A stretch of 64,000 nt of DNA from Deltaproteobacteria bacterium (lineage in GTDB: Bacteria > Chloroflexota > Dehalococcoidia > Dehalococcoidales > BS750m-G39), in the NCBI GenBank assembly GCA_030603275.1, contig JAUVYB010000005.1, forward strand, positions 13,928 to 77,927, in the 5' to 3' direction. This document shows positions 17,004-41,560 of this stretch, piece after piece (within the stretch, counting starts at the first letter, position 1; the number at the start of each line of letters is the position of its first letter). The notes under the pieces were generated by a model. It saw only the letters and a list, made by a program, of their open reading frames with translations, was not told the origin of the DNA and made no database searches. A program made the translations under genes and the position numbers.

Positions 17004-17025
17004 TTTTACACCCCTTTGCATTTTA

Positions 17026-23222: not shown

Positions 23223-23223
23223 A

Positions 23224-23979: not shown

Positions 23980-24986
23980 TATTGAGCCTCCAGGAAGGTC
24001 AAGTCCAGAATATCTGCGGTGTTAAAGCTGTTCTTGATGTAGCCGAGACTGGCGATGTAGTCTATGGTATCCTGGACTATCTCCGGGTCGATATCGGTGG
24101 TATATTCCAGCCTTTCCATAGACCGCAGCATCACTTCGGGGGTGATTTCCAGCCCGCTGGCGACCTCTCCTGCCTCGTTCGGGAAAACCTCACCGCCGGC
24201 GGCTTGCATCTGCCCGGCCACGACCCCGGCGGCTTCATCTGGGTGCTCATTTATCCAGTCCGTCGCCCTTTGCGATACATTGACCAACTTCTGGACGACC
24301 TCGGGGTTATTATCTATCAGCTCCTGCTTGACCACCAGCACACTGCCCTGCATATCAGGCCAGACATCCTGGCTGGTGAGCAGCATGGTAAAGCCGAGCT
24401 CTTCGGTCATGGTCGCCCACTGCTCGGGGAGAAAAGCGGCGTCCAGCTGTCCCGTCTTGATGGCCAGCACCAGTTTGGGCGGGTTCATGCGCCGGGTATT
24501 GTTTAATATTTTGTCTTCATCAAGGTTATAGTTATCTATCGTCCTGTGCATGAGCACGTCGACGGCGCCGCCTTCCCGGACGCAGCCGAGGCGGGTGCCG
24601 GGATTTTCCAGGTCCCTGACCGTTTTTATTTTGGCGGGGTCTACCACAAGTCCGTAGCCGTACTTGTGCGTACCGGCGACTATTTTTATGGGCACGCCGC
24701 CGTTGGCGTAGACATTTATCGCCGGCACCAGGCATATATAGGCAACCTCAATTTCATCCCGGGCCAGGGCTGAAGCCAGCGCCATGCCGGTTACATAGCT
24801 CTCGTAGGCGGTGAGATTTAATCCTGCCTCCTCGAACCAGCCCTTGTCCTGGCTGATGTAGGCGCCGGCGGCGTGGTCCATAAACTCCACCGCCATGCCG
24901 ATGGGTGCTTCATCCGGAGCGGGACAGCCGGCAACCGGGATTAGAGCCAGTATTCCCGCCAGAAGTGCAATAAGTAGCTTTTTCAT
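23979..24986 (-). CDS. ABC transporter substrate-binding lipoprotein (NMT1/SsuA-like)
   Basis: 335 aa. Lipobox VAGC. The overall pattern matches NMT1/THI5-like periplasmic binding proteins, recalled from memory. Confidence 0.75.
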   Translation of the reverse strand: MKKLLIALLAGILALIPVAGCPAPDEAPIGMAVEFMDHAAGAYISQDKGWFEEAGLNLTAYESYVTGMALASALARDEIEVAYICLVPAINVYANGGVPIKIVAGTHKYGYGLVVDPAKIKTVRDLENPGTRLGCVREGGAVDVLMHRTIDNYNLDEDKILNNTRRMNPPKLVLAIKTGQLDAAFLPEQWATMTEELGFTMLLTSQDVWPDMQGSVLVVKQELIDNNPEVVQKLVNVSQRATDWINEHPDEAAGVVAGQMQAAGGEVFPNEAGEVASGLEITPEVMLRSMERLEYTTDIDPEIVQDTIDYIASLGYIKNSFNTADILDLTFLEAQ

Positions 24987-25051
24987 TTTTCTCTTTCTAG
25001 ATTAAACGGTTATATTGCGTTAGATATAGCGCTGGCTAAAAAATTATTACA

Positions 25052-25435
25052 CTACTCTTCCACCTCCTTCACAAACTGTTGGAACCTGGCCTGCAACTGC
25101 CTGTACCGTTCCACTACCTTACGTCCCTCATCGGTTAACCTGGTGCGGCCTCCCCCCGGCCCGCCGGCGACCTTCTCCACCAAGGGTGACGGCGCCAGGC
25201 GGTTGGCCGCCTCCACCCAGAGCCAGGCGTTGCGGTAGCCCAGCTTCATCGAGCGGGCGGCGGCGGCGATTGAGCCGAACCTGTCAATGCGCTCCAGCAG
25301 CATCTCCCTGCCCCCTCCCATGTAAAGCTCGCCGTCTTTTTCCAGCCATATCCGCCCCCTTACCGAGTAGCCCGGCCGGGGGTGGCGGGAGAGGTGAGGC
25401 GGTTTTTTGACGGTGAATTTGGGTATCTCGGTCAT
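25052..25435 (-). CDS. ModE N-terminal-domain-like winged-helix regulator (no Mop/TOBE domain)
   Basis: 127 aa. GSIAAAARSMKLGYRNAWLWVEAANRLAPSPLVEKVAGGPGGGRTRLT parallels the ModE HTH segment. Confidence 0.7.
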   Translation of the reverse strand: MTEIPKFTVKKPPHLSRHPRPGYSVRGRIWLEKDGELYMGGGREMLLERIDRFGSIAAAARSMKLGYRNAWLWVEAANRLAPSPLVEKVAGGPGGGRTRLTDEGRKVVERYRQLQARFQQFVKEVEE

Positions 25436-25708: not shown

Positions 25709-26287
25709 TTAGCTTATTTGAGACTGGTAATCGTCTCTGGTATTAATATCAGAGATAACGCTTGCCGAATCAACTGCCACCTTAAGGACATCATCGGGGT
25801 GCTGCCGGATTATCTCCCTCCCGCCGATATCGCCCTCCAGCTCCAGCAGCTCCGCTTTGTATTTAATGTCAAAGATAATGGGGTGGCCTCTTTTGCCCCG
25901 GTGGGTGGGGACGGCAATGCCTTTATCGTGGCTATTAAATGCGTCTATCAGCTGGTTGATAGTCCGGCTTTCCACCAGAGGCTGGTCGCCCAAAGCCAGC
26001 ATGACCGCCTGTGACTTGGGGTCAACCAGAATGAGCCCGGCAACTATGGAGGTGCTCATCCCCTGGCTGTAGTTGTGATTGAGCATTATTTTGACCGGTT
26101 TGGTGGCTATGGCCCTGGTTATTTCCTCCGCTTTATGCCCCACCACCACGATAGTCTCGTCAACCGATGAATTTAGCAGGTTGTCAATGGTCTGCTCCAG
26201 CAGGGTATGTTTGCCCAGGGGCATTAGTTGCTTGGGCTCACCCATCCGCTTTGATTCGCCGGCGGCCAGAAGTATTGCTGATAGCAT
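25709..26287 (-). CDS. MobA/MocA-like nucleotidyltransferase (molybdenum cofactor cytidylyl/guanylyl-transferase family)
   Basis: Start chosen at MLSAILLAAGESKRMG (26287), which removes the overlap with the upstream XRE gene. Typical NTP_transf_3 N-terminus. Confidence 0.75.
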   Translation of the reverse strand: MLSAILLAAGESKRMGEPKQLMPLGKHTLLEQTIDNLLNSSVDETIVVVGHKAEEITRAIATKPVKIMLNHNYSQGMSTSIVAGLILVDPKSQAVMLALGDQPLVESRTINQLIDAFNSHDKGIAVPTHRGKRGHPIIFDIKYKAELLELEGDIGGREIIRQHPDDVLKVAVDSASVISDINTRDDYQSQIS

Positions 26288-26300
26288 TGGCTGCTTTCTA

Positions 26301-26684
26301 TCAGGACGGCTCTTTTTGGCTACTGTTCTGGGCAATGCTCTTAAGAATGCTCAAGATGCCGATGATAGCGCGCTGGGTTTCTATCGGTTCTCTTGACAGC
26401 ATCTTGGCCACGTAAGGGTCCAGCCCCTCCTGGCTCTCGCTCCCGAGAGGGGTGCCGGGTGAGAGATAGCCAGCCAGCATGAACAGCTCGTCCTCGTCAA
26501 AACCGAGGGGTCTGGCTATCTTGCGCAGGATACTGGCCGAGGGGAAACGCTCTCCCCGTTCGATTCTGCCCAGGTGTGATGCCGATACGCCGGCCCTGGC
26601 GGCGAGCTCCCGCAGGGTCAACGGCACCATAACCCTCTGCCTCTTGATTATGGTACTAAGGTTAGTTCCAGTAGTAGTATCCAT
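26301..26684 (-). CDS. XRE-family helix-turn-helix transcriptional regulator
   Basis: 127 aa. LTLRELAARAGVSASHLGRIERGERFPS. Confidence 0.8.
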   Translation of the reverse strand: MDTTTGTNLSTIIKRQRVMVPLTLRELAARAGVSASHLGRIERGERFPSASILRKIARPLGFDEDELFMLAGYLSPGTPLGSESQEGLDPYVAKMLSREPIETQRAIIGILSILKSIAQNSSQKEPS

Positions 26685-27770: not shown

Positions 27771-27951
27771 CTTGGCCTGTTCTCCACCGCATTATACCGC
27801 TTGCGACCTGTCAATGCGAGGGGGCATTGATGTTTTTTTGATGTAAATTTGACGTTTTGCTGATGCCGTTTCTAGGCTTTTTTGATTGCTATGGTGCTAT
27901 GTTATTGGTAAGCCCGATTACGCTTCGAGGCGGGCAGAACAGGAGGTAAGC

Positions 27952-29328
27952 ATGAAAAGGAAAATTTTGGGCATGATAACCATTGTGGCAGTGATTCTGG
28001 GGGTGGTAATAGCCGTCCCGGCGGTCGCGGCGGATGTTACGGTGAGTATAGACGCCCCGGCGCAGGTATCCCCCGCCAGCGATTTCACCGTTAATATTAA
28101 TATCACGGAGGTGACCGACTTTGACGCCTGTAACTATGATGTTTCTTTTGACGCCTCGGTGCTGAGGCTGGATAACGTCACCTCCGGGCTGATAGGCTCA
28201 ACCGCGATACCGGTTGATGTCTATAACGAGATTAGCGCCGGCACCTACCGGGTTATTCAGAATGTCCCCGGTATCTCAGGGGTATCCGGTACCGGCTACC
28301 TGGGGGTGCTGAGCTTTCATGTCCTTGGCGCTGAGGGCGACAGCAGCACCATAACTTTCTCCAACGGCGTGATTGCCAGCAGCCTGGCCGAGGAGATAAC
28401 GGCCACCTGGGTGGGCGGCTCGGTGGAGGTGACGGTGACGCCGGTGGCGGTTAGTATAGACGCCCCGGCTGAAGTCAGCCCCGCCAGCGATTTCACCGTT
28501 AACGTCAATATCGGCGATATTACCGACTTCGATGCCGTTAGCTTTGACGTCTCCTTTGATACCCTGGTGCTGCGGCTGGATGATGTAACCGCCGGGCTGA
28601 TAGGCGCAACCGCGATACCGGTGGATATCTATAGCGAGGTTGAGGTGGGGACATGGCGGGTTGTCCAGAACGTGCCCGGTGTAACCGGCGTGACCGGCTC
28701 CGGGTATCTGGCGGTTTTGCACTTCCATGTTATCGGCGCTGACGGCGACGGCAGCGCTATAAGCCTGTCCAACGGCGTGCTTTCCAATAACCTGGCCGAG
28801 GAGATAACGGCCACCTGGACCGGTGATTCGGTGACTATTGCCGATAACACCGCGCCGGTGGTGACCATAACGCCGTTTACCCCCGACCCGACCGATAACA
28901 CCACCCCGACCTTAACCGGCACCGCCACCGATGAATCTAATATAAGCACGGTGGAGTACAAGGTTGATGACGGCATCTGGACGGCGGCGACGGCCAGTGA
29001 CGGCGCCTTTGACAGCCCCAGCGAGAGTTATACCTTTACCACGGCCGCCCTTTCCGAGGCAGAGCATACGGTATACGTCCGGGCTACCGATTCGGCGGGT
29101 AACACTACCGCCGAGGTCGATTACGCCAGTGACAGCTTTACCGTGCAGACGGTGGCACCTGGAGACGCCAACGGTGACGGCACCGTTAATGTCCTTGATA
29201 TCACCAGGGTGGAGAGGGCGATAGCCGCCCTTGATCCTGAAACCCCCGGCTCTGATGCCAATCAGGACGGCGTGATTAACGTGCTGGATATTACCCGGAT
29301 AGAGAGGATGATTGCTGGCCTGGGTTAG
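27952..29328 (+). CDS. Secreted/anchored protein: 2 cohesin-like domains + Ig-like domain + C-terminal dockerin
   Basis: Start at MKRKILGMITIVAVILG (AGGAGG lies 6 nt upstream). Two ~136-aa repeats follow the cohesin pattern (F.VN.NI...TDFDA..(Y/F)DVSFD..VLRLD.VT.G). C-terminal duplicated DANGDGTVNVLDITRVERAIA / DANQDGVINVLDITRIERMIA. Confidence 0.75.
   Translation: MKRKILGMITIVAVILGVVIAVPAVAADVTVSIDAPAQVSPASDFTVNINITEVTDFDACNYDVSFDASVLRLDNVTSGLIGSTAIPVDVYNEISAGTYRVIQNVPGISGVSGTGYLGVLSFHVLGAEGDSSTITFSNGVIASSLAEEITATWVGGSVEVTVTPVAVSIDAPAEVSPASDFTVNVNIGDITDFDAVSFDVSFDTLVLRLDDVTAGLIGATAIPVDIYSEVEVGTWRVVQNVPGVTGVTGSGYLAVLHFHVIGADGDGSAISLSNGVLSNNLAEEITATWTGDSVTIADNTAPVVTITPFTPDPTDNTTPTLTGTATDESNISTVEYKVDDGIWTAATASDGAFDSPSESYTFTTAALSEAEHTVYVRATDSAGNTTAEVDYASDSFTVQTVAPGDANGDGTVNVLDITRVERAIAALDPETPGSDANQDGVINVLDITRIERMIAGLG
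28036..28839 (+). repeat. Tandem ~408-nt duplication encoding the two cohesin-like domains
   Basis: The units start at 28036 and 28444. About 80% nucleotide identity by eye over the aligned stretches. Confidence 0.8.
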
Positions 29329-29784: not shown

Positions 29785-30591
29785 ATGAGCGCTGAACTAA
29801 GCCGCTTAATCGTCCTTATAAAGGGGGGTGGGGAGGTGGCCAGTGGGGTGGCCCATAAGCTGGCCCGTGCCCGCTTCCGCGTCTGCCTGACCGAAACTGC
29901 TGAGCCCCTGGCCGTCAGCCGGGGGGTCGCCTTCTGCGAGGCAATCTATGACGGGGAGAAGGAGGTTGAGGGGATAGTTGCCCGGCGGGCTGAATCGGCC
30001 GTTGAGATTCATAAGCTGTGGCGGGAGGGACGTGTAGCTATCATCGTTGACCCCAAAACATCGGTCAGGAAAACGTTTAAACCCCAGGTGCTGGTTGACG
30101 CTATAATGGCCAAGAAGAACCTGGGGACAAAAATTAACCATGCCCCGCTGGTTATCGGGCTGGGGCCTGGCTTTGGGGCGGGCAAGGATGTCCATATGGT
30201 GGTGGAGACCAACAACAGCGAGAGGCTGGGGAGGGTAATTCTTGAGGGGGAGGCCGAGAAGGATACCGGAATCCCGGTCGCTATCGGCGGCCTGACCCAT
30301 GAGCGGGCGCTGCACGCTGCCGGAGACGGCCTTTTCCTGACCGACCGATATATAGGTGACCCGGCCAGCGCCGGCGAGGTGGTGGCTACGGTGGCTGGAA
30401 AGCCGGTCAGGGCGGAGATAGACGGTATAGTCCGGGCCATGCTGCGGGACGGGACAACGGTTAAAAAGGGGACGAAGCTGGGGGAGATAGACCCTTCCGG
30501 GGATAAAGAGGACTGTTATACCATTCGCCCCAGGGTGAGGGCGATTGCCGGCGGGGTTTTAGAGGCGATAATGATGCGCTACAATGCTTAG
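29785..30591 (+). CDS. yqeB: YqeB/EF2563-family selenium-dependent molybdenum hydroxylase system protein
   Basis: 268 aa. IKGGGEVASGVAHKLARARF.V...E...PLAVSRGVAF.EAIYDG matches my recollection of the YqeB family. Adjacent to xdhC. Confidence 0.7.
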   Translation: MSAELSRLIVLIKGGGEVASGVAHKLARARFRVCLTETAEPLAVSRGVAFCEAIYDGEKEVEGIVARRAESAVEIHKLWREGRVAIIVDPKTSVRKTFKPQVLVDAIMAKKNLGTKINHAPLVIGLGPGFGAGKDVHMVVETNNSERLGRVILEGEAEKDTGIPVAIGGLTHERALHAAGDGLFLTDRYIGDPASAGEVVATVAGKPVRAEIDGIVRAMLRDGTTVKKGTKLGEIDPSGDKEDCYTIRPRVRAIAGGVLEAIMMRYNA

Positions 30592-30608: not shown

Positions 30609-31382
30609 ATGAATGATATTTACCAGGAGATAGTAAGGGTTAAGGCGGAGGGGGAGGAGGCGGCGCTGGTCACGGTTGTTTCGGCCAGCGGCTCCACGCC
30701 CAGAGAGGAAGGGGCCAAGATGCTGGTCAGCCCCGACGGCAGCATTTTGGGAACAATCGGCGGCGGTAGCCTGGAAGTCCAGGTAATCAAGGAGGCGGTT
30801 AAGGTGATAAAGCAGGCCAAGCCAAAGCGTCTCTACATGAGCTTGACCGCTGAGGAAGCCGGGGAGATGGGGATGATATGCGGTGGGGAGCTGGAGGTGT
30901 TTATCGAGCCTATCCTGACCACGCCTGCCTTATATATATTCGGCGGTGGGCATATCGCGCTGTCGCTGGCCAGGATGGGCAAGCTGGTCGGCTTTAATAT
31001 TACTGTCATCGACGACCGGGCTGATTTCGCCAGTGCCGAGAGGTTCCCCGAAGCCGATGTTATCCTGGCCGAGGACTTTACCAAATCATTCCCTAAGCTA
31101 AAGATAGATAAATCGAGCTACATCGTGATTGTTACCCATGGTCACCAGCATGACGAGGTGGTGCTGGAGTGGGCGGTGGGCACCCCGGCTAAGTATATCG
31201 GCATGATAGGCAGCAAAACCAAAAACGAGACTATATTCTCCCACCTGCTGGCCAGGGGAATATCCCGGGAGCAGATGGACAGGGCCCATGCCCCGATTGG
31301 CCTGGAAATAGAGGCGCAGACGCCGGAGGAGATAGCCGTCAGCATCCTGGCGGAGGTAATAAAAGTCCGGCGGTCTTCTTAA
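30609..31382 (+). CDS. xdhC: XdhC/CoxI-family molybdenum hydroxylase accessory protein
   Basis: 257 aa. N-terminal XdhC_CoxI-like segment (ALVTVVSASGSTPRE.GAKMLV) and a Rossmann-like half (IFGGGHIA). Confidence 0.82.
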   Translation: MNDIYQEIVRVKAEGEEAALVTVVSASGSTPREEGAKMLVSPDGSILGTIGGGSLEVQVIKEAVKVIKQAKPKRLYMSLTAEEAGEMGMICGGELEVFIEPILTTPALYIFGGGHIALSLARMGKLVGFNITVIDDRADFASAERFPEADVILAEDFTKSFPKLKIDKSSYIVIVTHGHQHDEVVLEWAVGTPAKYIGMIGSKTKNETIFSHLLARGISREQMDRAHAPIGLEIEAQTPEEIAVSILAEVIKVRRSS

Positions 31383-31414: not shown

Positions 31415-31888
31415 ATGGTAAGACCGATGGGCAATCGGCCGAAGTGGCTGGCCGGTTTGATGATACTGGTTTTAGCCGTCCTTGTTATCAGTGGTTGTCC
31501 CCCGGTTGAGCCGCCGCCGATTAACCAACCCCCCGCTGAGCAACCGCCGACTGACCAGCCGCTGACCGGGCAACCGCCGGTTGATGAACCGCCGGCTAAT
31601 CAGCCCCCGGTTATAAACAGGCTGTTTTCGGAGTACCGTCAAGTTAAAAGGTCTACGGCCACTCCTGTTGAATGTTCTGCCTCAGACCCGGATGGGGACG
31701 AACTGAGCTATGTCTGGTCAGCCACCGGCGGGACTATCACCGGTGAGGGAGCGGCGGTTAGCTGGGCAGCTCCTGAGAAGTCGGGCACCTATACCATTAC
31801 CGTCACGGTAGCTGATGGCCGGGATGGTCAGGCCGCAGAAACTATAGATATTAAAGCTGCCTGCTGCCCGATAAAGGCAGACGAGTAA
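31415..31888 (+). CDS. Lipoprotein with proline-rich repeats and a PKD/Ig-like domain
   Basis: 157 aa. Lipobox ISGC. Repeats PPINQPPAEQPPTDQPLTGQPPVDEPPANQPP, then SASDPDGDELSYVWSATGG. Confidence 0.6.
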   Translation: MVRPMGNRPKWLAGLMILVLAVLVISGCPPVEPPPINQPPAEQPPTDQPLTGQPPVDEPPANQPPVINRLFSEYRQVKRSTATPVECSASDPDGDELSYVWSATGGTITGEGAAVSWAAPEKSGTYTITVTVADGRDGQAAETIDIKAACCPIKADE

Positions 31889-31897: not shown

Positions 31898-32461
31898 CTA
31901 GAACAGGGGTTTGCAGAGGACTTCCTTGACCTTGAGGTCGAAAAAGTCCTCGGAGTTGACTGGCCGCAGTACCACCGCCGTATCCACCCCACGGCCGGTG
32001 CCGCCGATAACGATGATATCCTCGTCGGTGCGCACCAGGCCGGCGTCAGCCGCCATAAGGGCGATTTCACAGACTACCTTCATGCCCTGTCCGAATATAC
32101 GCAGGGTGTTAGCCACCGTTTCCTCGAAGAGGTACATATTGAACTTCTTGCGCATCGCCCGGCCCAGTCCCGAGAAAAGGTGGGTGGCGGTGAGCAGGGG
32201 GACGCCGGCGCTAACTAGCTTCTGCCGGTTCTCTTCGGTGAACTCCTGGAAATTTGGCTCTCTCATACCAGTAAAGTGGCTGACCGCCACTATTCTGGCT
32301 CCCTTAAAGACCTCCACCGCCTTTAACGCGGTATCCCCGCTGGTAGAGGCTACCAGAATGCTCTTTATGCCCAACTCTTCCGCCCTGATCCCGACCAGGC
32401 GCAGCACTTCATCGGTGTTCTGCTTCCCGGGCTCGGGAAAATAGGTTATCTTTGCTTCCAT
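31898..32461 (-). CDS. Stand-alone pyruvate kinase C-terminal (alpha/beta) domain-like protein
   Basis: 187 aa. ILVASTSGDTALK...RIVAV pattern as in the PK C domain. Last gene of the fdhD-Ubl-E1 operon. Confidence 0.6.
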   Translation of the reverse strand: MEAKITYFPEPGKQNTDEVLRLVGIRAEELGIKSILVASTSGDTALKAVEVFKGARIVAVSHFTGMREPNFQEFTEENRQKLVSAGVPLLTATHLFSGLGRAMRKKFNMYLFEETVANTLRIFGQGMKVVCEIALMAADAGLVRTDEDIIVIGGTGRGVDTAVVLRPVNSEDFFDLKVKEVLCKPLF

Positions 32462-32509
32462 TATTTCTGACTCCTCCCTGTGATTTACCCCCCGGCAATA
32501 CGTTTACAC

Positions 32510-33268
32510 TTATTTCCTGTCTTTTGCCGGCTTTCCGCAGTGCGGGCAATCGGGGTCTTTTTTAACCTTGAACTCGGTAAATTTCATGTTAAGCCCGTCG
32601 TAGACTAAAAGTCTATTGGCCAGCATCTGCCCTATCCCCACCAAGTATTTTATCACCTCTGTCGCCTGGATGCAGCCGATAACCGCCGGCGTTACCCCTA
32701 TGACCGGGAATTCCTCCTCGGCGATGGTTCCCCGGTAGACGCATCTAAGGCAGGCGGTCTGGCCCGGTATTACGGTCATGGCCCTGCCCTCAAAGCCGTA
32801 GACCGCACCGTGAAAGAAGGGGATATTTTTTTCTATGGCGGTTTTATTGAGCAGATAGCGGGTGGGCAGGTTGTCCATGGCATCGACGATGAGGTCACAG
32901 CCTTCCACCAGCCGGGAGACATTGGCTTTGGTTATTCTTTTCTCGACGGCTTCTATTTTTACCTGCGGGTTCAGTTGTTTTAGCTTGCCCTTAGCTGAAC
33001 TGACTTTTTTTTGGCCGATGTCCTCCGGCCAGTGCAGGATCTGCCGGTTAAGGTTGCTCAGTTCTACCTTATCGTGGTCAACGATGCGCAGTGTGCCCAC
33101 TCCGGCAGCGGCCAGATAGGTGGCTGAGGAAGAGCCAAGGCCGCCGGCGCCGGCAATAAAGACCGTGGCCCTTTTTAGCTTTTCCTGCCCTTTTTGCCCG
33201 AAGCCTTTAAGCATTATCTGGCGGGCATATTTTTCCTGCTCGTCTTGGTTGAGCATTTTGCCGGTCAC
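32510..33268 (-). CDS. ThiF/MoeB/HesA-family E1-like adenylyltransferase
   Basis: 252 aa. YARQI...GQ.KL....V.I.GAGGLGS, D.D.VE.SNLNRQ, zinc cysteines CLRC and CPHC. No rhodanese domain. Confidence 0.85.
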   Translation of the reverse strand: MTGKMLNQDEQEKYARQIMLKGFGQKGQEKLKRATVFIAGAGGLGSSSATYLAAAGVGTLRIVDHDKVELSNLNRQILHWPEDIGQKKVSSAKGKLKQLNPQVKIEAVEKRITKANVSRLVEGCDLIVDAMDNLPTRYLLNKTAIEKNIPFFHGAVYGFEGRAMTVIPGQTACLRCVYRGTIAEEEFPVIGVTPAVIGCIQATEVIKYLVGIGQMLANRLLVYDGLNMKFTEFKVKKDPDCPHCGKPAKDRK

Positions 33269-33282
33269 CCCCTCTTAATAGG

Positions 33283-33498
33283 CTAGCCGCCGCCGATTAT
33301 CGTGTCCAGAACAGTGATTTCGGCCACATCCGGGTCTATCCGGTAGATGACCTCGCCGGTTTTGCTGTTGGCTACCAGACCGCCCAGAGGGTCAGCGTAG
33401 GTTTCGTCCAGGATTTTTCTGGCTTCCTCAACCGTCAACTCTTTTTCTCCTCCCGACGCGAAACGGACCTTGATTTTTGGTTCCATAATAGTAAACAA
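33283..33498 (-). CDS. Ubiquitin-like (MoaD/ThiS-type) small protein ending in GGG
   Basis: 71 aa (67 if it starts at MEPKIKV). C-terminus DPDVAEITVLDTIIGGG fits the beta-grasp sulfur-carrier pattern. Lies 14 nt upstream of the E1 gene. Confidence 0.55.
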   Translation of the reverse strand: MFTIMEPKIKVRFASGGEKELTVEEARKILDETYADPLGGLVANSKTGEVIYRIDPDVAEITVLDTIIGGG

Positions 33499-33530
33499 CT
33501 CCCCCGGTTAAGGCAAGCCTTGAGGGCGGT

Positions 33531-34259
33531 TTATTCTACCTCCTGTCCCTTCACTCTCCACTCGCTGGCGTAGAGGTTCATCTTTTTATCCCGGGCAAAG
33601 CCGACCAGGGTCACCCCCAGATTTTGGGCCAGCCTCACCCCCAGGTTAGTGGGAGCGGCTCTGGAGATAAGCAGGGGAACGTTTCTCTTAGCCACCTTGA
33701 GCAGTATCTCCGATGAGACCCGCCCGCTGGTGATTAGCAAGCGCCCGGTGGTGGCTATATCTTTGAGCAGACATTCCCCGAAGACCTTGTCTATGGCATT
33801 GTACCGGCCGATGTCATCGCTGAAGACCAGAATGTTTTCAGTATCGGCCAGGGCGGCGCTGTGTACCCCGCCGGTGTCTTTGAATAGTTGAGAGCTCTGT
33901 ACAAAATCGTCCATCAGGGCGAAGACCTGGGGGGCTGATATTGCAATATCGGAATCTACTTTTTTGGCCTGGGTGTGGGGGGTGGGCTTGATATCTTTTT
34001 TGGTTTTCACCCGCACCGTGCCCTTCTTCCGGTCGACGGTTATCTTTGTGATATCATCGTGGCTGTTGATTAAGCCTTCGGAGGCGAGGAAGCCGACCGC
34101 CAGGTAGTTAAGCTTCTGGGGGGAGCAGGGCAGAGTGGCCACCTCTTTGTTATTGAGGGTGATGGTAAGGGGAAACTCCATGACTACTATGTCGGTATCG
34201 ATACTCCGACCGGTCCCGGTAACGCGCCATATGGGGAACTGCTCCATAGTATCTGCCAT
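33531..34259 (-). CDS. fdhD: FdhD/NarQ-family formate dehydrogenase accessory sulfurtransferase (without the Cys loop)
   Basis: 242 aa. FKDTGGVHSAAL, DDIGRYNAIDK, SGRVSSEILLKVA...PLLISRAAPT, GVTLVGFAR. The loop that carries CxxC in E. coli FdhD has no cysteine here. Confidence 0.82.
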   Translation of the reverse strand: MADTMEQFPIWRVTGTGRSIDTDIVVMEFPLTITLNNKEVATLPCSPQKLNYLAVGFLASEGLINSHDDITKITVDRKKGTVRVKTKKDIKPTPHTQAKKVDSDIAISAPQVFALMDDFVQSSQLFKDTGGVHSAALADTENILVFSDDIGRYNAIDKVFGECLLKDIATTGRLLITSGRVSSEILLKVAKRNVPLLISRAAPTNLGVRLAQNLGVTLVGFARDKKMNLYASEWRVKGQEVE

Positions 34260-35374: not shown

Positions 35375-36001
35375 ATGATTGCCATAATAGATTATGGCGC
35401 CGGCAACCTGCGCAGCGTGGTTAACGCCGTCAGCCGCCTGGGCTATGAGGCCAAGGTTGTTAACCGCCCTGAAGAGGTTATTAGCGCCCGGGTGGTTATA
35501 CTGCCCGGGGTGGGGGCGGCGGCTGATACCATGGCTAACCTGCAGAAAACGGGGTTGGACAGCGCGGTTAAGCGCTATGTCGCTGAGGGGTGGCCATTCC
35601 TGGGGGTCTGCATCGGGATGCAGGTGCTGTTCGGCGGCACCGAAGAGGGCGGCTGGCATGAGTGCCTGGGCGTTATCCCCGGCGCGGTGCGCAGGTTTGC
35701 ACCGGGCTTAAAGGTTCCCCACATGGGCTGGAACCAGGTAAAGCAAAAGATTGCTCACCCCATCTTCGAGGGCATACCCGATGAAGCTAACTTTTATTTT
35801 GTCCACAGCTACTATGTTAAGCCGGAGGACGGGTCGCTGGTGGCCGGCGAGACCGAGTACGGCATCCCGTTCTGCAGTGTTGTAACTAAAGATAACCTGG
35901 TGGCCACCCAGTTTCACCCGGAGAAGAGTGGGGAGGTGGGGCTAAAAATTTACGATAATTTTATCAGGGTTGCCCTGGGAGCCAAAGCGGGCAGGCGGTA
36001 A
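35375..36001 (+). CDS. hisH: Imidazole glycerol phosphate synthase, glutaminase subunit
   Basis: 208 aa. IAIIDYGAGNLRSV, LGVCIGMQVLF (catalytic Cys), HMGWN, FYFVHSY, QFHPEKS. Confidence 0.93.
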   Translation: MIAIIDYGAGNLRSVVNAVSRLGYEAKVVNRPEEVISARVVILPGVGAAADTMANLQKTGLDSAVKRYVAEGWPFLGVCIGMQVLFGGTEEGGWHECLGVIPGAVRRFAPGLKVPHMGWNQVKQKIAHPIFEGIPDEANFYFVHSYYVKPEDGSLVAGETEYGIPFCSVVTKDNLVATQFHPEKSGEVGLKIYDNFIRVALGAKAGRR

Positions 36002-36004
36002 GAA

Positions 36005-37351
36005 ATGGCGATAGCAGAGAAAATAAAGTATTTGATTATCGGCAACTCGGCGGGTGGCATCGGCGCCGCCGAGGCCATCCGCGGGGTGGATAAGGCGGGG
36101 ACACTGGCTATCGTCTCCGACGAGCCCTACCCGGCCTACTCGCGGCCGCTTATCTCCGAGCACCTTTCCGAGGGGCGTTCTCTGGAGAGGATGCTCTACC
36201 GCCCGGCCGATTTCTACGAGCAGAATAAAATAAAAACCGTCTTCGGTGATACAGTGGCGCGAATTGATTTCGGTGGGCGTACCCTTGAGCTGGAAAGCGG
36301 CCGAACTATTGCCTGGCAGAAGCTGCTGCTGGCTACCGGCGGCTCACCTATCGTGCCCGGGATGGAGGGTAAAGATTTAAAGGGGGTTTTCACCTTTACC
36401 ACCCTTGATGATGCTAAAGCAATAGATAAGTTCCTGAAGCAGCGCCAGGGCAGGATAAAAGCGGTGGTCATCGGCGGGGGGCTTATCGGGGTGAGCGCCA
36501 CCGAAGCCCTGTTAAAGAGGGGGGTGGAGATCAGCATCGTCGAGATGAAGGACTGGGTTTTGAACACCATCCTTGATGAGGAGGCGGCGGCCCTGGAAGC
36601 GGCGGCTCTGAGCGGGGCTGGTGTTGACATAATAACCGGACATACCGTGGCTAAAATAAACAGCAGTCTGCTGGATGAGGTCAACGGCGTCAGCCTGGAT
36701 GATGGGCGGTCTATACGATGCGATATGGTTGTCGTCGCCATCGGAGTTACGCCGCGCCTTGACCTGGTGGCTGATAACGGGGTTAAGACCAACCGGGGCA
36801 TAATCGTTGACCGCCGTATGGCTACATCCGTACCCGGTGTCTATGCCTGCGGTGATGTTGCCGAGGCCTATGATTTCGTCTACGGGGAGAACCGGGTAAC
36901 GCCGGTCTGGCCCAACGCCTATACCGGCGGCCGGGTCGCCGGCCTGAATATGGCCGGTAAGAAGGCGGAATACGGGGGCGGGACGGCCATGAACGCCCTA
37001 AAGTACTTCGGGGTGAATATCCTTTCGGCGGGGATGGTGAACCCGCCCGATGACAGCTACGAAGTTATCAGCCAGAGGGGCGATGGTATCTATAAAAAAG
37101 TGATAATTAAAGACGGGAAGATACTGGGCATGGTCTTTGTCGGCGATATCGAGAAAGCGGGCATTATCTATAATCTAATGAAGGACGGGGTAAAGGTGGG
37201 GTCTTTTAAAGAAACGCTGGTTGCCGACGACTTCGGCCTTGCCTCTCTGCCGGAGAAAATCTGGCGTGCCCGGCTGGATATACCGGCTTCCGAGGAGGCT
37301 TCCATAGTGCCCCCGGTTGAGCCAGCCGAAGAAGAGGTCGTTGATGAATAG
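36005..37351 (+). CDS. FAD/NAD(P)-dependent pyridine nucleotide-disulfide-family oxidoreductase
   Basis: 448 aa. IIGNSAGGIGAAEA, second dinucleotide fold VIGGGLIGVSA, ACGDVAE. Confidence 0.8.
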   Translation: MAIAEKIKYLIIGNSAGGIGAAEAIRGVDKAGTLAIVSDEPYPAYSRPLISEHLSEGRSLERMLYRPADFYEQNKIKTVFGDTVARIDFGGRTLELESGRTIAWQKLLLATGGSPIVPGMEGKDLKGVFTFTTLDDAKAIDKFLKQRQGRIKAVVIGGGLIGVSATEALLKRGVEISIVEMKDWVLNTILDEEAAALEAAALSGAGVDIITGHTVAKINSSLLDEVNGVSLDDGRSIRCDMVVVAIGVTPRLDLVADNGVKTNRGIIVDRRMATSVPGVYACGDVAEAYDFVYGENRVTPVWPNAYTGGRVAGLNMAGKKAEYGGGTAMNALKYFGVNILSAGMVNPPDDSYEVISQRGDGIYKKVIIKDGKILGMVFVGDIEKAGIIYNLMKDGVKVGSFKETLVADDFGLASLPEKIWRARLDIPASEEASIVPPVEPAEEEVVDE

Positions 37352-37376
37352 CCTTGCTTTTAAGGAGAAGCTTTAA

Positions 37377-38512
37377 GTGAGAGATATCGGGCGGATAAAT
37401 AACCCTAACCAGGATAACAAGATAATCGACGCCTGCTCTATATTCGGGGCGATGGATACCACCGGTAAACGGTTTTCCGGCGAGGGCGTCATCAGGGCTA
37501 TCGCCAACATGCACGACCGTGGCAACGGGCTGGGCGGCGGCTTTGCCGTCTACGGCCTCTACCCCGATTACGCCAACCAGTACGCCTTTCACGTGATGTT
37601 CCTGAGCCAGCAGGGCAGGCAGGAGACGGAGGCGTTTTTAAAGGATAACTTTGACCTTATCGAGCAGCAGGAGGTGCCCACCCGGCTGGCGCCGCCGATT
37701 AAGCACCCGCCGCTGGTACGGCGCTATTTTCTTGACATAAATAAAAATAAGCCAGGCAAGCAGTCCGGGGATGACTATGTATTAGAAAAGGTTATGACCA
37801 TAAATACCAAATTATCCGACAGCTTTGTCTTTTCCAGCGGTAAGAACATGGGGGTATTTAAGGGGGTGGGCTACCCCGAGGAGATAGCCGATTACTTCTG
37901 TTTGGAGCAGTACCAGGGCTACCTCTGGACGGCTCACGGGCGGTTCCCCACCAATTCCCCCGGCTGGTGGGGTGGTGCGCACCCGTTCTGTATCCTGGAC
38001 TGGACGGTTATTCACAACGGTGAGATTTCGTCCTACGGTATTAATCGCAGGTATTTGGAGCAGTTCGGCTACCAGTGTACCATGCAGACCGATACCGAGG
38101 TGGTGGCCTACGCCGTCGACCTGCTGATGCGCCAGCACCACCTGCCGCTGGAGGTAGTGGCCAAAATCCTGGCACCGCCTTTCTGGAATACTATCGGGCG
38201 CCTGCCGAAAGAGGAGCAGAAGCTGATGCTGGCTCTGCGCCAGGTGTACGGCAGCCTGCTCCTGAACGGGCCCTTCGCCGTAATTATCGCCCACCACGGT
38301 GAGATGATTGGGCTGACCGATCGTATACGCTTAAGGCCGCTGACGGTGGGGGAGAAGGGTGATATGCTCTATCTATCTTCTGAGGAATCGGCAATCCGCC
38401 TGATAGCCCCGGAGCTGGATAAGGCCTGGATACCGATGGGTGGCCAGCCGGTAGTCGGCAGGCTGAAGGTGGGGGCTAAAAATAGAGTAACCGCCGGGGG
38501 GGGCGAAATAAG

Positions 38513-38519
<7 letters not shown>
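37377..38519 (+). CDS. Glutamate synthase, class II (Ntn) glutamine amidotransferase domain protein (archaeal-type split GltS)
   Basis: 380 aa. Catalytic Cys in [10 protein letters not shown] follows a short propeptide. HGRFPTNS and HNGEISSYG-type motifs. GTG start. Confidence 0.82.
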
Positions 38520-39289
<770 letters not shown>

Positions 39290-39293
39290 GACG

Positions 39294-40799
39294 ATGAAGA
39301 CCTATATAGCACCCAAGTTTTTAGTAAAGCGAGACCCGGAGCGCTGTATCCAGTGCCAGGTTTGTGTTAACCAGTGCAGCTTTGACGCTAATTACTATGA
39401 TGCCGAGGACAACGAGGTCAGGAGCCGCGAGGAGAACTGCGTCGGCTGCCACCGCTGCGAGGTATTTTGCCCCACCCAGGCGCTGACCATCAGCCGCAAC
39501 CCGCAGGAATATCGCGAGAACTATAACTGGCGCCCAGAGGTTATCGAAGATATCTTAAGGCAGGCCGAGACCGGCGGGGTGCTGCTGACCGGCATGGGTG
39601 ACGACAAGGGACAGAAGATTTACTGGGACCACCTGCTGCTCAATGCCAGCCAGGTGACCAACCCTTCTATAGACCCCCTCCGTGAGCCGATGGAGCTTGT
39701 TACCTGGCTGGGGCGGAAACCCGACCGGCTGGAGCTTGATGATAAATCACGGAATCTGAAAACGGAGCTGGCTCCCCAGGTGAGGCTGGAGGTGCCGGTG
39801 ATGTTTGCCGCCATGTCCTACGGGGCGGTGAGTCTTAATGTGCACCGGTCTCTGGCCCGGGCGGCTACCGAGATGGGTACCCTCTGGAACACCGGTGAGG
39901 GGGGACTGCACCCCAGCCTGTATAAATACGGCGATAACACCATTGTCCAGGTGGCTTCCGGGCGCTTCGGCGTGCAGGCCGACTACCTGAACGCGGGAAG
40001 GGTGGTCGAGATAAAAATCGGGCAGGGAGCCAAGCCGGGAATCGGCGGGCATTTGCCCGGGGAGAAGGTAAGCGCCGAGGTATCGTTAACCAGGATGATT
40101 CCCCAGGGCACCGACGCTATATCGCCGGCGCCGCAGCATGATATTTACTCTATTGAGGACCTGGCGCAGCTTATATACGCTTTGAAAGAGGCGACCAACT
40201 ACACCAAGCTGATATCGGTCAAGATTGCCGCCGTCCATAACGCGGCGGCTATCGCCAGCGGCATGGTGCGGGGCGGCGCCGATATTATCGTCCTTGACGG
40301 GCTCCGGGGCTCTACCGGTGCGGCGCCAAAGGTTATCCGTGACAATGTGGGCATTCCCATCGAGCTGGCGTTGGCCGCGGTTGACAGCCGTTTACGTCAG
40401 GAGGGCATACGCAACCAGGCCTCTATAGTGGTCTCCGGCGGCATCAGAAACAGCGGCGACGTGGCCAAGGCCATCGCCCTGGGGGCTGACGCCGTCTATA
40501 TCGGCACGGCGGCCCTCATTGCCCTGGGCTGCCATGTCTGCCAGCAGTGCCATACCGGCAAGTGCGCCTGGGGGCTCTGCACCACCGACCTCCGCCTGAC
40601 CAAGCGGGTCAATCCCGACATCGGCGCCCGAAGGCTGGCTAATTTGCTGCGGGGCTGGAGCATCGAGCTAAAAGATATACTGGGTGGGCTGGGGGTCAAC
40701 GCCATCGAGAGCCTGCGGGGCAACCGCCTGCACCTGAGAGGTGTTGGCTTAAGCGATACCGAGCTGGAAATTCTGGGAGTAGGGATGGCAGGGAGCTAG
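39294..40799 (+). CDS. Glutamate synthase FMN-binding/catalytic domain protein with N-terminal 2x[4Fe-4S] motif
   Basis: 501 aa. CIQCQVCVNQC and CVGCHRCEVFC. QGAKPG.GG.LPG.KV, GG.GA.P, CHTGKC-type 3Fe-4S region. Confidence 0.9.
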   Translation: MKTYIAPKFLVKRDPERCIQCQVCVNQCSFDANYYDAEDNEVRSREENCVGCHRCEVFCPTQALTISRNPQEYRENYNWRPEVIEDILRQAETGGVLLTGMGDDKGQKIYWDHLLLNASQVTNPSIDPLREPMELVTWLGRKPDRLELDDKSRNLKTELAPQVRLEVPVMFAAMSYGAVSLNVHRSLARAATEMGTLWNTGEGGLHPSLYKYGDNTIVQVASGRFGVQADYLNAGRVVEIKIGQGAKPGIGGHLPGEKVSAEVSLTRMIPQGTDAISPAPQHDIYSIEDLAQLIYALKEATNYTKLISVKIAAVHNAAAIASGMVRGGADIIVLDGLRGSTGAAPKVIRDNVGIPIELALAAVDSRLRQEGIRNQASIVVSGGIRNSGDVAKAIALGADAVYIGTAALIALGCHVCQQCHTGKCAWGLCTTDLRLTKRVNPDIGARRLANLLRGWSIELKDILGGLGVNAIESLRGNRLHLRGVGLSDTELEILGVGMAGS

Positions 40800-40801
40800 C
40801 A

Positions 40802-41560
40802 ATGGCGAGCAGAAAGAACTCAGTGGTTAAGATGGATGCCGGCGGCGTTTACTACCGGGAGCTTAACGCTAACTTAAGAAAAGCCGTTACCAACAGCACC
40901 CGCCGCATCGAGCTCCGCAACGTCTACGGGCAGAGGTACATCGGCACCGATTTGAATAAGCCGGTGGAGATTGAGATATTCGGCACTCCCGGTAACGACC
41001 TGGGGGCCTTTATGAACGGGCCCAGGATTATCGTCTGGGGCAACGCCCAGGACGGCTGCGGCAATACCATGAACGAGGGCGAAATAGTAATCCACGGCCA
41101 CGCCGGAGATATTATCGGGCTATCGGCGCGGGGTGGCAAAATCTTTGTCCGCGATGACGTGGGCTACCGGGCGGGCATCCATATGAAGGAGTACCGGGAT
41201 CGTAAGCCGGCGCTGGTTATCGGGGGCACCGCCCAGGACTTTGTCGGCGAGTATATGGCCGGCGGTGTGCTGATCCTGCTGGGCCTGAATTTAAAAGAGG
41301 GCGAGAGTCATAAAGCCAATTTTATCGGCACAGGCATGCACGGCGGCGTTATCTACCTGAGGGGAAGCGTCGAGGAGTACCAGCTGGGTAAGGAGGTAGG
41401 CGTCGCCCAGCTGGAGGACGCCGACCGTCAGGTTCTTAAGCAGCTGGTCGGCGAGTTCGCCGCCCACTTCGGCTACGATGCTGGCGAGATACTGAAGCAT
41501 AAGTTTATAAAGCTGTTTCCCCGCTGGCTGCGGCCTTACGGCCGGCTCTACGCCTATTGA
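40802..41560 (+). CDS. Glutamate synthase GXGXG-motif domain protein (GltB domain 3-like)
   Basis: 252 aa. Repetitive beta-helix pattern: G.AG...G..M.GG.I.V.G.AGD..G. Confidence 0.85.
   Translation: MASRKNSVVKMDAGGVYYRELNANLRKAVTNSTRRIELRNVYGQRYIGTDLNKPVEIEIFGTPGNDLGAFMNGPRIIVWGNAQDGCGNTMNEGEIVIHGHAGDIIGLSARGGKIFVRDDVGYRAGIHMKEYRDRKPALVIGGTAQDFVGEYMAGGVLILLGLNLKEGESHKANFIGTGMHGGVIYLRGSVEEYQLGKEVGVAQLEDADRQVLKQLVGEFAAHFGYDAGEILKHKFIKLFPRWLRPYGRLYAY

Follow-up and report, generated by a model that had tools for sequence, protein, structure and literature searches.

The genes of the locus described here are best read as a modular island rather than as a dedicated new relay. Four genes that run in the same direction on the minus strand encode an FdhD-family chaperone, a GG-terminated ubiquitin-like protein (Ubl), a MoeB/ThiF-type E1 enzyme and an MTH1675-like PK_C protein, and the chances seem to us evenly balanced that they make up one transcription unit within an island for sulfur-carrier and molybdenum-cofactor maturation, in a Dehalococcoidia-type lineage. 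The initial annotation of the window (the whole 64-kb stretch of DNA analysed) was right in its observation that a Cys-less FdhD stands in an operon with a Ubl, an E1 and a PK_C-domain protein: all four minus-strand open reading frames are present where it placed them, with gaps of 32, 14 and 48 nt. No internal terminator was found in the four-gene operon, and dN/dS ratios of 0.1-0.3 across all genes indicate that the genes are real and under constraint. The consensus cluster that emerges from related loci appears to be new and undescribed.

An FdhD whose inter-domain loop is deleted

The FdhD of the window (33531..34259, minus strand, 242 aa) matches PF02634 over both domains (E=3.9e-68, 230 bits for a cutoff of 27.2) and TIGR00129 (197 bits, above the 140.9 cutoff), and its core motifs are intact, as annotated. 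It thus shares its family with the E. coli FdhD of the FdhD-IscS system (4pde), with which both its N- and its C-terminal domain can be aligned, the GGVHSAA-type motif included. Unlike the E. coli protein, it lacks the C121/C124 loop, and the 64 kb contain neither a cysteine desulfurase nor an open reading frame of molybdopterin-oxidoreductase size that could encode a formate dehydrogenase (FDH) catalytic subunit. An FDH gene was likewise absent from the Pfam-annotated contexts of relatives.

The protein has two cysteines only, C45 and C163, which do not vary within the clade; with none between residues 46 and 162, no alignment is able to put a cysteine in the inter-domain segment. In local alignments, residues 74-112 face residues 86-153 of E. 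coli 4pde, a segment that carries C121 and C124, and are 29 residues shorter; residues 77-108 face residues 83-131 of 2pw9 and are 17 residues shorter. Family alignments show that the loop is deleted and not substituted, with about 24 residues absent compared with relatives. In close relatives the loop reads KRLITSG-C-GRGASFYS, and in others TSG-G-GRG. The Cys-less loop proposed from the sequence is therefore confirmed by the solved FdhDs and by the family alignments, with the difference that the loop is gone outright, and the stretch previously taken as the corresponding loop (VKTKKDIKPTPHTQ) is what remains after the deletion. With dN/dS values of 0.22-0.27 against close relatives (omega about 0.25), the window FdhD is under purifying selection and, judged by this, still functional. 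Its dN is 1.5-2 times that of the neighbouring genes.

The idea that FdhD requires its loop cysteines is out of date. Across the family the CXXC cysteines are not conserved, natural members with no cysteine are known, Cys-to-Ala variants still give active FDH, and a loop cysteine equivalent to E. coli C121/C124 defines groups I and II only, not all FdhDs (PMC6239281). The window FdhD resembles in this respect R. capsulatus FdsC and the group III FdhDs, in which the loop cysteines are either not required or missing by nature and which still bind sulfurated bis-MGD (PMC6239281). It differs from them in that the whole loop is deleted, not the cysteine alone, and in that it is a second paralogue lying among E1 and Ubl genes, an arrangement for which we found no description in the literature.

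The putative carrier, its E1 and the neighbouring Moco genes

The Ubl, here named Ubl67 (33283..33486, minus strand), is a 67-aa protein. An alternative TTG start at 33498 would give 71 aa, the length first annotated; translation probably begins at ATG 33486 (MEPKIKV), which matches all 27 homologues, while the annotated IIGGG ending stands. Ubl67 matched nothing in Pfam and NCBIfam, even at E<=10, and nothing among PDB sequences; its family profile finds no PDB carrier, and it falls outside PF02597 and the moaD, thiS and SAMP models. HHalign gives a probability of 4% for a relationship to ThiS90, the neighbouring carrier family of related loci. Its close homologues form 28 clusters, every one of 67 aa, and at 50% identity the family comprises 67 clusters, nearly all with a C-terminal GG; dN/dS is 0.2-0.3. 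The AF2 model (pLDDT 84.3) predicts a bb-a-b...b topology with a disordered GGG tail, and the top 25 Foldseek matches in the PDB are all ubiquitin-fold proteins (UBX, NEDD8, ubiquitin, ISG15), with weak scores (E 0.02-0.1, TM 0.4-0.57). In every checkable locus the gene lies directly upstream of the E1 gene. The conserved GG, this position and the predicted beta-grasp-like fold support the view that Ubl67 would behave like an E1 substrate. Ubl67 founds a new, unannotated family of GG-terminal Ubls that invariably precede this E1, and annotation pipelines at present leave it nameless. It is also the only local carrier, since no second GG-terminated small open reading frame occurs within 64 kb; we counted this against the best explanation of the locus given below.

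The E1 (32510..33256, minus strand) is a MoeB/ThiF-family adenylyltransferase (PF00899, E=1.5e-80, 270 bits) with a probable start at ATG 33256, giving 248 aa, and an alternative GTG at 33268. It carries the nucleotide-binding GxGxxG motif as GAGGLGS and both Zn-binding CxxC motifs (CLRC and CPHC, aligned to the MoeB cysteines), and no rhodanese domain. None of the NCBIfam equivalog cutoffs (MoeB, UbaA, ThiF, MoeZ) is reached, the nearest model being PRK05690 MoeB (252.5 against a cutoff of 266), and the closest solved structures, E. coli MoeB 1jw9 (3.5e-47) and ThiF (4e-44), score almost equally. A small E1 with these motifs next to a GG protein recalls the ThiS-ThiF, MoaD-MoeB and CysO-MoeZ pairs. 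Unlike those pairs, Ubl67 matches no ThiS or MoaD model, and no acceptor enzyme (MoaE, ThiG, a CysM-specific protein, TtuA) is clustered with it. The annotated absence of an adjacent moaE was borne out, no moaE-sized candidate existing within the 64-kb window; Thi4, NifS, NifU, MOSC and CysK are also missing from the window.

Several other genes of the window belong to molybdenum-cofactor (Moco) metabolism. Convergent with the operon on the plus strand lies a gene for an XdhC-family Moco chaperone (30609..31382; PF13478, PF02625; 328.7 bits against NF045664, below the 350 cutoff), whose position adjoining the E1 is conserved in the closest clades. On the same strand, 29785..30591 encodes YqeB, an accessory protein that serves as a marker for selenium-dependent molybdenum hydroxylases (SDMH; TIGR03309, 319 bits, above 220) and is genetically required for selenium-dependent purine catabolism (PMC2276186, PMC11448449). 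A MocA/YgfJ molybdenum cofactor cytidylyltransferase (25709..26335, minus strand; TIGR03310, 194.9 bits, above 186.45) is syntenic in L001, L002, L091, L099 and L102. Beyond it lie a regulator with a ModE N-terminal domain (25052..25435, minus strand; TIGR00637, 77 bits, below cutoff) and, next to this, an SsuA-type ABC transporter (22146-24986), whose substrate-binding protein reaches 133 bits against TIGR01728, below cutoff. No yqeC was identified in the window. XdhC, YqeB and MocA/YgfJ recall the XdhC-NifS4 and YqeB/YgfJ sets. Those systems use a cysteine desulfurase or SelD, whereas here the neighbour that stays constant is an E1 accompanied by at least one Ubl, and, unlike in SDMH accessory sets, the window contains no local hydroxylase or selD.

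Gene content of related loci

We compared about 100 related loci and counted the association between FdhD cysteines and the E1 on those that were deduplicated and testable. An orthologous E1 lies at most 2.6 kb downstream of 18 of the 22 Cys-less FdhDs and of 3 of the 48 Cys-type FdhDs (Fisher p=3e-10, from a handful of clades). The co-occurrence predicted by the initial annotation thus exists for the E1; Ubl67 is absent from many Cys-less loci. Exceptions occur on both sides: four testable Cys-less FdhDs have no E1 within 2.6 kb downstream (L040, L046, L056, L067), an E1 accompanies a Cys-type FdhD in L034 and L060, and L086 has a syntenic cluster with a Cys-containing FdhD. Cys-type copies occupy NifS-(AIR-synthase-like)-MOSC-FdhD-NadA-CutA arrangements. 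Both types are found together in two genomes (CP070673.1, L041/L042; CAZQXA01, L013/L073), where the Cys-type FdhD sits with NifS and the Cys-less one with the E1. Cys loss and loop deletion are seen in several separate branches.

Every FdhD adjacent to Ubl67 with a readable loop is Cys-less. However, about half of the E1-linked FdhD loci are without Ubl67, among them L001, L004, L013, L081 and L104 with Cys-less FdhD and E1, indicating that the Cys-less FdhD is independent of Ubl67. Many Cys-less loci of this kind carry CutA1 and, behind the E1, a canonical CysO/MoaD-like ThiS. Conversely, L088 has Ubl67-E1 beside XdhC-YqeB, L099/L100 are fully syntenic for Ubl67-E1-PK_C and XdhC-YqeB, and L102/L103 for E1-PK_C and XdhC-YqeB, all with neither FdhD nor a remnant of it, and L102 lacks Ubl67 as well. 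The function of the Ubl/E1 pair would then be independent of FdhD. The most constant trait of the window's clades is the E1 adjoining XdhC-YqeB, with or without FdhD, Ubl67, ThiS90 and PK_C.

In most relatives the E1 is followed by ThiS90, a CysO/SAMP1/MoaD-like protein that best matches CysO-type carriers (4n6e_B, 1.1e-17; 3dwg_C, 5e-17), then MoaD-related proteins and SAMP1, suggesting that the E1 works with a conventional partner in a conventional role. In some relatives two different carriers flank a single E1. This resembles systems in which one E1 serves many Ubls, such as Thermus TtuC with TtuB, ThiS and MoaD, and Haloferax UbaA with SAMP1-3. Within 10 kb, none of the Pfam-annotated contexts of relatives contains moaE, moaA, moaC or moeA, so that a role of the E1 and its carriers in molybdopterin (MPT) synthesis is assumed.

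Possible sinks for the carrier sulfur and the PK_C-like protein

The relatives suggest a consensus cluster of the form (CysK / IscS-NifU-DsrE-TusA, divergent)-FdhD-CutA1-Ubl67-E1-ThiS90-PK_C-like, convergent with XdhC-YqeB and with MocA/YgfJ and a ModE-type regulator nearby, of which the window would be a pared-down form, CutA1 and ThiS90 having been lost. From what is known of its family, the E1 would adenylate the glycine at the C-terminus of Ubl67, and that of ThiS90 in loci that have it, a persulfide donor would turn the adenylate into a thiocarboxylate, and the carrier would pass its sulfur into cofactor biosynthesis, most likely to the molybdopterin dithiolene or to another thiolation. 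The window FdhD would be a second, Cys-independent paralogue, still able to bind Mo/W-bisPGD and hand it on. It may have arisen when a copy of the FdhD-CutA-E1-ThiS segment left the NifS-MOSC-NadA context; the loop cysteine, documented in E. coli FdhD mainly as a stimulator of IscS, would have become dispensable once the segment was separated, and FdhD may have decayed repeatedly, from Cys to Gly, to loop deletion and, in some relatives, to loss of the whole gene. Besides the single local carrier, three points count against this explanation: moaE, moaA, moaC and moeA are absent from the annotated contexts; two different Ubls flanking one E1 suggest that the sink of Ubl67 is distinct from that of ThiS90; and a purely historical account does not predict the strength of the association between Cys loss and E1.

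This association favours the relay first suggested for the locus, here in a generalised form in which the E1 loads Ubl67 or ThiS90 and the flexible tail of the carrier hands sulfur directly to Mo/W-bisPGD in the Cys-less FdhD dimer, replacing the route from a cysteine desulfurase to a loop cysteine. Cys loss tracks both the immediately downstream E1 and the loss of the same-strand NifS/MOSC/NadA context; the two-paralogue genomes, the Cys-less state of Ubl67-adjacent FdhDs, the disordered GGG tail and the short operon gaps without an internal terminator fit as well, and a different sulfur route where CXXC is absent has been speculated upon (PMC6239281). Nevertheless, we consider this relay unlikely. 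Ubl67 is not tied specifically to FdhD, as shown by the loci that keep Ubl67-E1 without FdhD; E1-PK_C persists in L102 with neither of them, and about half of the E1-linked FdhD loci have no Ubl67; Cys-type FdhDs coexist with an E1, in L086 within a syntenic cluster, and Cys loss also occurs with no adjacent E1. In L104, IscS-NifU-DsrE-TusA divergently adjoins a Cys-less FdhD, the FdhD cysteines are experimentally dispensable (PMC6239281), and a link between FdhD and thiocarboxylates is absent from the literature.

The constancy of the E1 beside XdhC-YqeB, together with the above-cutoff YqeB and YgfJ of the window and the genetic requirement for YqeB, would suit a Ubl/E1 pair that serves XdhC-YqeB(-MocA/YgfJ) in providing the labile terminal sulfido ligand, or given YqeB perhaps a selenido ligand, of an MCD-type cofactor of the xanthine oxidase family, with FdhD as an optional passenger. 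We hold this to be very improbable: XdhC-YqeB lies on the other strand and is not part of the operon's transcript, neither the window nor the sampled contexts yielded a Mo hydroxylase or a selD gene, and the AIR-synthase-like gene of relatives is not SelD (43 bits against a cutoff of 125). Moreover, a deltaproteobacterial-labelled clade (L032, L042, L066, L080) has FdhD-CutA-E1-ThiS without XdhC-YqeB nearby, and the SDMH literature makes no mention of an E1 or Ubl (PMC2276186, PMC11448449). Sinks outside Moco, with the FdhD/XdhC clustering reflecting a general sulfur island, could be CysO/CysM-type cysteine synthesis, Thi4- or ThiG-type thiazole synthesis, TtuB/SAMP2-type tRNA 2-thiolation or SAMP-like protein conjugation. 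CysO carriers are the best solved relatives of ThiS90, CysK lies divergently upstream in L005, L081, L082, L096, L104 and L105, Thi4 is present in L084, the E1 is as close to MoeB as to ThiF and gives a score with UbaA too, and the fold of Ubl67 matches, with weak scores, ubiquitin/NEDD8-like proteins. Its size of 67 aa and its GG terminus resemble those of TtuB and SAMP2, which we counted in the same direction. Published sulfur islands, in which ThiF, ThiS, NifS, NifU, CysK, MOSC and FdhD recur, hold the same genes (bioRxiv 10.1101/2025.09.23.678117), and the Thi4 relay islands described there share ThiF, ThiS, NifS, NifU, CysK, MOSC/YiiM and FdhD with our relatives; the window differs from them in having Ubl67 and the PK_C-like protein, neither of which is mentioned there. 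Against sinks of this kind, which we regard as decidedly unlikely, the annotated relative contexts contain no CysM-specific gene, Mec/JAMM protease, TtuA/NcsA or ThiG, and the surroundings of the window are Moco-specific (XdhC, YqeB, MocA, ModE-like).

The broader proposal that an E1-made thiocarboxylate on Ubl67 and/or ThiS90 is the direct donor of the Mo/W terminal sulfido ligand (selenido with YqeB), on the Cys-less FdhD and/or XdhC-YqeB, in a desulfurase-free last step with the PK_C protein as a further component, seems to us distinctly doubtful. A direct relay, if true, would be a new use of ubiquitin-like thiocarboxylates and might be relevant to the unsolved question of how selenium-dependent molybdenum hydroxylases mature. 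The delivery of the terminal sulfido ligand, which is essential for catalysis, to Mo/W cofactors is settled for few model systems only, and there is dispute over what the FdhD cysteines do. The E1 with two kinds of GG carriers is a testable candidate sulfur donor, and the locus with its roughly 100 relatives constitutes a natural experiment, in which FdhD paralogues that have the Cys loop and others that lack it stand in different sulfur-donor contexts.

Besides the Ubl67 family, which has no database model, the locus brings in a second uncharacterised player, an abundant MTH1675-like PK_C protein conserved at 80-90%. This stand-alone protein (31898..32461, minus strand, 187 aa) belongs to the MTH1675/AF0103 family, for whose function nothing was found in the literature. 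Its annotation is confirmed by PF02887 (E=8.6e-12) and by full-length alignment (residues 1-185) to the structural-genomics proteins MTH1675 (1t57, E=5.9e-50) and AF0103 (1vp8, E=1.4e-45). It has 5557 homologues, the best 120 of which are 78-91% identical and are called hypothetical protein or nameless, and its gene follows the E1 or ThiS in L001, L002, L005, L086, L091, L092, L094-96, L099 and L102.

The FdhD operon and its shortened loop

The four minus-strand genes lie as the initial annotation had described them: FdhD (33531-34259), a small GG-terminated ubiquitin-like protein (33283-33498), a MoeB/ThiF-type adenylyltransferase, hereafter E1 (32510-33268), and a stand-alone pyruvate-kinase-C-domain-like protein, PK_C-like (31898-32461). 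They are separated by gaps of 32, 14 and 48 nt, and no terminator-like site was found between them on the minus strand. FdhD is recognised by PF02634 (E=3.9e-68) and scores 197 bits against TIGR00129, for which the cutoff is 140.9. The E1 carries a ThiF domain (PF00899, E=1.5e-80) and stays under every NCBIfam equivalog cutoff (MoeB, UbaA, ThiF, MoeZ). It lies about as close to E. coli MoeB (3.5e-47) as to ThiF (4e-44), and its two Zn CxxC motifs align with theirs. The PK_C-like protein matches PK_C (E=8.6e-12) and is related over its full length to the structural-genomics proteins MTH1675 (1t57, E=5.9e-50) and AF0103 (1vp8, E=1.4e-45), for which we found no functional literature under either protein or structure name; among the best 120 matches listed in its homology search, only close Dehalococcoidia-type relatives appear. 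Judged by agreement with homologues, the true start of the ubiquitin-like protein is most likely the ATG at 33486 (MEPKIKV, 67 aa, hence Ubl67), and that of the E1 the ATG at 33256 (248 aa).

The only cysteines of the window FdhD are C45 and C163, which rules out a hidden loop cysteine, and both are invariant across the clade whether a loop cysteine is present or not. In HMMER alignments to solved FdhDs, both domains are aligned, with query residues 74-112 opposite 86-153 of the E. coli protein (4pde) and 77-108 opposite 83-131 of 2pw9, indicating that the linker is 17-29 residues shorter and bearing out the proposal of a loop without cysteine. An alignment of 120 homologues separates three loop classes: one with Cys (reading 'ITSG-C-GRGASFYS'), one that keeps the loop with Gly instead ('TSG-G-GRG'), and a deleted class to which the window FdhD belongs. 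The Cys class aligns with GCGVCG of E. coli; the loop conclusion is independent of the E. coli sequence used there because it relies on the 4pde/2pw9 alignment ranges and the cysteine inventory.

Cys-less FdhD as such is already known, since the group III FdhDs of Schwanhold et al. 2018 (PMC6239281) include 'no cysteine' members, and therefore cysteine loss alone demands no replacement relay. When these cysteines of FdsC and FdhD are replaced by alanine, bis-MGD is still bound and active FDH still obtained, the chief effect of C121 being to stimulate E. coli IscS; for proteins without the motif, the authors remark that the path of sulfur 'might differ' (PMC6239281). Our literature search found no paper tying FdhD to a thiocarboxylate donor.

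Pairwise Nei-Gojobori omega values between the window and its relatives were 0.17-0.34 for FdhD (0.22-0.27 for the closest pairs), 0.12-0.30 for Ubl67, 0.06-0.29 for E1, 0.13-0.25 for PK_C, 0.11-0.20 for XdhC and 0.13-0.23 for YqeB, the last two being neighbours of the operon. Going by these values, all six genes are functional. Non-synonymous change is 1.5-2 times faster in FdhD than in the neighbour genes; the possibility that it is a decaying pseudogene was ruled out by its intact ORF and the omega of 0.22-0.27.

The small putative carriers around the E1

Pfam and NCBIfam domain searches returned no match for the small ORF, annotated as 71 aa. Among 5.8 billion proteins, a word-indexed search recovered only 28 clusters of the Ubl67 family, nearly all of 67 aa and either unnamed or named 'hypothetical protein'. 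When a profile was run exhaustively against 1.84 billion representatives, 67 clusters were recovered (30 at E<=1e-10), mostly of 64-72 aa, with a Gly-Gly end in nearly all. The AlphaFold2 model (pLDDT 84.3) contains strands 4-9 and 14-18, helix 19-31 and strands 36-40 and 56-61, followed by a disordered tail (64-67). Its best Foldseek matches in the PDB are ubiquitin folds only (UBX, NEDD8, ubiquitin, ISG15), all weak (E 0.02-0.1, TM 0.4-0.57). The idea that it is a divergent ThiS/MoaD found no support in Pfam, NCBIfam, a profile search of the PDB or HHalign; no sequence kinship was found to Pfam ThiS, any NCBIfam model, PDB sequences or ThiS90, the 90-aa ThiS-family protein encoded directly after the E1 in most relatives. 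In the Ubl-anchored loci, Ubl67 is always directly upstream of the E1, this metagenome scan having confirmed only 9 loci because back-translated patterns are weak. We therefore regard Ubl67 as a new family, so far unannotated, of GG-terminal ubiquitin-like proteins associated with an E1. Both this family and the consensus cluster, with its very conserved MTH1675-like protein, are solid new findings.

ThiS90 has its best profile matches in CysO-type 4n6e_B (1.1e-17) and M. tuberculosis CysO (3dwg_C, 5e-17), followed by MoaD-related proteins and SAMP1, and falls just under the SAMP1 and archaeal-MoaD cutoffs. The window has lost it: no ThiS remnant was found in the 48-nt E1-PK_C gap, and no second MoaD/ThiS, CutA or orf51 elsewhere in the window. 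The loci L094 (2316-2975) and L095 (4547-5206) carry two tandem ThiS-family genes (86 and 90 aa) after the E1, split by a short E1 fragment, which with Ubl67 makes three GG carriers per E1. CutA1 (PF03091; L081 10722-11054, L082 10791-11123, L086 10782-11114, L099 6653-6982) is a very constant member of the island that is lost in the window; most relatives have it between FdhD and E1 (or Ubl67), and in the Cys-type order it also follows NadA. In many relatives, FdhD or CutA1 is closely preceded by a conserved 51-aa Cys-rich ORF (MKMVKLCREGTCCPAVKV...) without Pfam match or homologue in the window (L099 6411-6566, L081 9815-9970, L086 9751-9906, L105 9815-9970).

FdhD neighbourhoods and the route of sulfur

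FdhD neighbourhoods were compared in 80 genome loci, mostly Dehalococcoidia MAGs, and in long metagenome contigs, with neighbours scored by phmmer. The majority order is (CysK...) NifS - AIR-synthase-like - MOSC - FdhD(Cys) - NadA - CutA1, sometimes with E1-ThiS after CutA1 (L034) or before MOSC (L026, L037, L043, L051); the NifS matches TIGR03402 (595 bits). The AIR-synthase-like gene was rejected as SelD (43 bits, where 125 are required); HypE, the model it matches best, is also missed by a wide margin. The derived order is FdhD - CutA1 - (Ubl67) - E1 - ThiS90 - (PK_C), convergent with XdhC - YqeB. At deduplicated, testable loci, an orthologous E1 lies at most 2.6 kb downstream of 18/22 Cys-less vs 3/48 Cys-type FdhDs (Fisher p=3e-10), NadA directly downstream of 1/24 vs 48/59 (p=3.1e-11) and MOSC directly upstream of 5/23 vs 44/60 (p=3.5e-05). 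The predicted co-occurrence of Cys-less FdhD with the E1 is thus real, and the unbiased genome set gives about 11/15 vs 2/46. Two genomes, CP070673.1 (L041/L042) and CAZQXA01 (L013/L073), contain both FdhD paralogues.

This co-occurrence and the operon anatomy speak for the relay put forward in the initial annotation, in which sulfur would arrive as a thiocarboxylate on the Ubl instead of through an FdhD persulfide. Nevertheless, we consider a direct chalcogen transfer from a thiocarboxylate to FdhD (or to XdhC/YqeB) unlikely. The Ubl is not a constant partner of Cys-less FdhD: between FdhD and E1, relatives may have CutA1 (L004, L032, L042, L066, L080, L081, L104, L105) or nothing (L013, L018), the closest genome relative, L001, retains Ubl67 only as a C-terminal remnant ('...ILDTIIGGG*'), and across loci Ubl67 comes and goes independently of FdhD, CutA1, ThiS90 and PK_C. 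Moreover, the E1 in relatives usually has a conventional partner, ThiS90. The L086 cluster, FdhD(Cys) - CutA1 - E1 - PK_C / XdhC - YqeB - zincin - cohesin/dockerin - ADH, is syntenic with the window, yet its FdhD keeps the loop cysteine. Conversely, L099/L100 and L102/L103, whose two flanks both share the gene order of the window (GltS, HisF, HisH and Fer4 on one; PKD, XdhC, YqeB, zincin, ADH, HTH and MocA on the other), keep CutA1 - (Ubl67) - E1 - PK_C without FdhD, of which no remnant was found there, and L088 has Ubl67 - E1 beside XdhC - YqeB, also without FdhD.

The cysteine has also been lost at loci where no E1 is adjacent (L040, L046, L056, L067). In a neighbour-joining tree, Cys-less FdhDs fall into several groups, the loop was deleted at least twice, and the Cys-type L086 is basal to the window's clade, a pattern suggesting that the loop was repeatedly released from constraint; as the E. 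coli C121 column was wrongly placed in the local-pair alignment behind the tree, Cys state was taken from other alignments and a motif regex. At L104, IscS - NifU - DsrE - TusA and CysK divergently adjoin a Cys-less FdhD, so a missing persulfide source is not a rule for such proteins, and the 'NifS upstream' statistic, which counted same-strand genes only, overstates the separation. We prefer, with roughly even confidence, to see here a modular sulfur-carrier and Moco-maturation island, where the E1 would serve one or two small GG carriers and FdhD would be an optional paralogue that works without the cysteine, its loop having decayed once the gene had left the NifS/MOSC context.

Long FdhD ORFs are present at L023 (9527-10774), L046 (6893-8101) and L087 (1798-3048, P0059), the last encoding a 416-aa MOSC-FdhD fusion with a Cys-less loop. 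This fusion and the separate MOSC directly upstream at most Cys-type loci suggest a functional partnership, of which we found no description.

The wider molybdenum-cofactor island and other genes

The window also encodes XdhC (by Pfam), YqeB (TIGR03309, 319 bits > 220) and MocA/YgfJ (TIGR03310, 195 > 186). YqeB and YgfJ serve in bioinformatics as the markers for maturation of selenium-dependent molybdenum hydroxylases, and in C. difficile the yqeB deletion phenocopies that of selD (PMC2276186, PMC11448449). No Mo/W enzyme, moaA/C/E, moeA or selD was found in the window or any Pfam-annotated context, the one exception being an AOR gene, in fragments, on the upstream side of L086. The contexts of the relatives match the sulfur-relay islands of a recent preprint, in which ThiF, ThiS, NifS, NifU, CysK, MOSC and FdhD recur together (bioRxiv 10.1101/2025.09.23.678117). 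Adjoining MocA, a regulator with a ModE N-domain and an SsuA/NMT1-type ABC transporter (22146-25435) may take up molybdate or tungstate by a non-canonical route; the ATPase of the syntenic L086 transporter has a faint TOBE match. Two genes inside the island are kept in synteny in L086, L099 and L102: one for a surface protein of cohesin/dockerin type that contains two internal repeats (27886-29328), the other for a PKD/Big_9 lipoprotein whose linker is rich in proline (31415-31888).

Elsewhere, hisH and hisF are interleaved with archaeal-type split glutamate synthase genes (35375-41560; GATase_2, FMN/Glu_synthase and GXGXG subunits, plus a Pyr_redox_2 flavoprotein and a 4Fe-4S protein), an order common to L001, L099 and L102. 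Tandem 391-aa paralogues (4457-5632 and 5694-6869) have tubulin/FtsZ-like N-termini (MK[LI]VVVG[LF]GQCG...). Next to an MBL-fold gene, 7973-8980 has a weak match, well short of the cutoff, to the model for a double-cubane-cluster anaerobic reductase (NF040772, 54 bits). Finally, a CoA-disulfide-reductase-like flavoprotein (15303-17021; TIGR03385, 436 bits, below cutoff) extends about 120 aa past the C-terminal end of the model, and this extension could be a candidate rhodanese-type sulfur-transfer domain.
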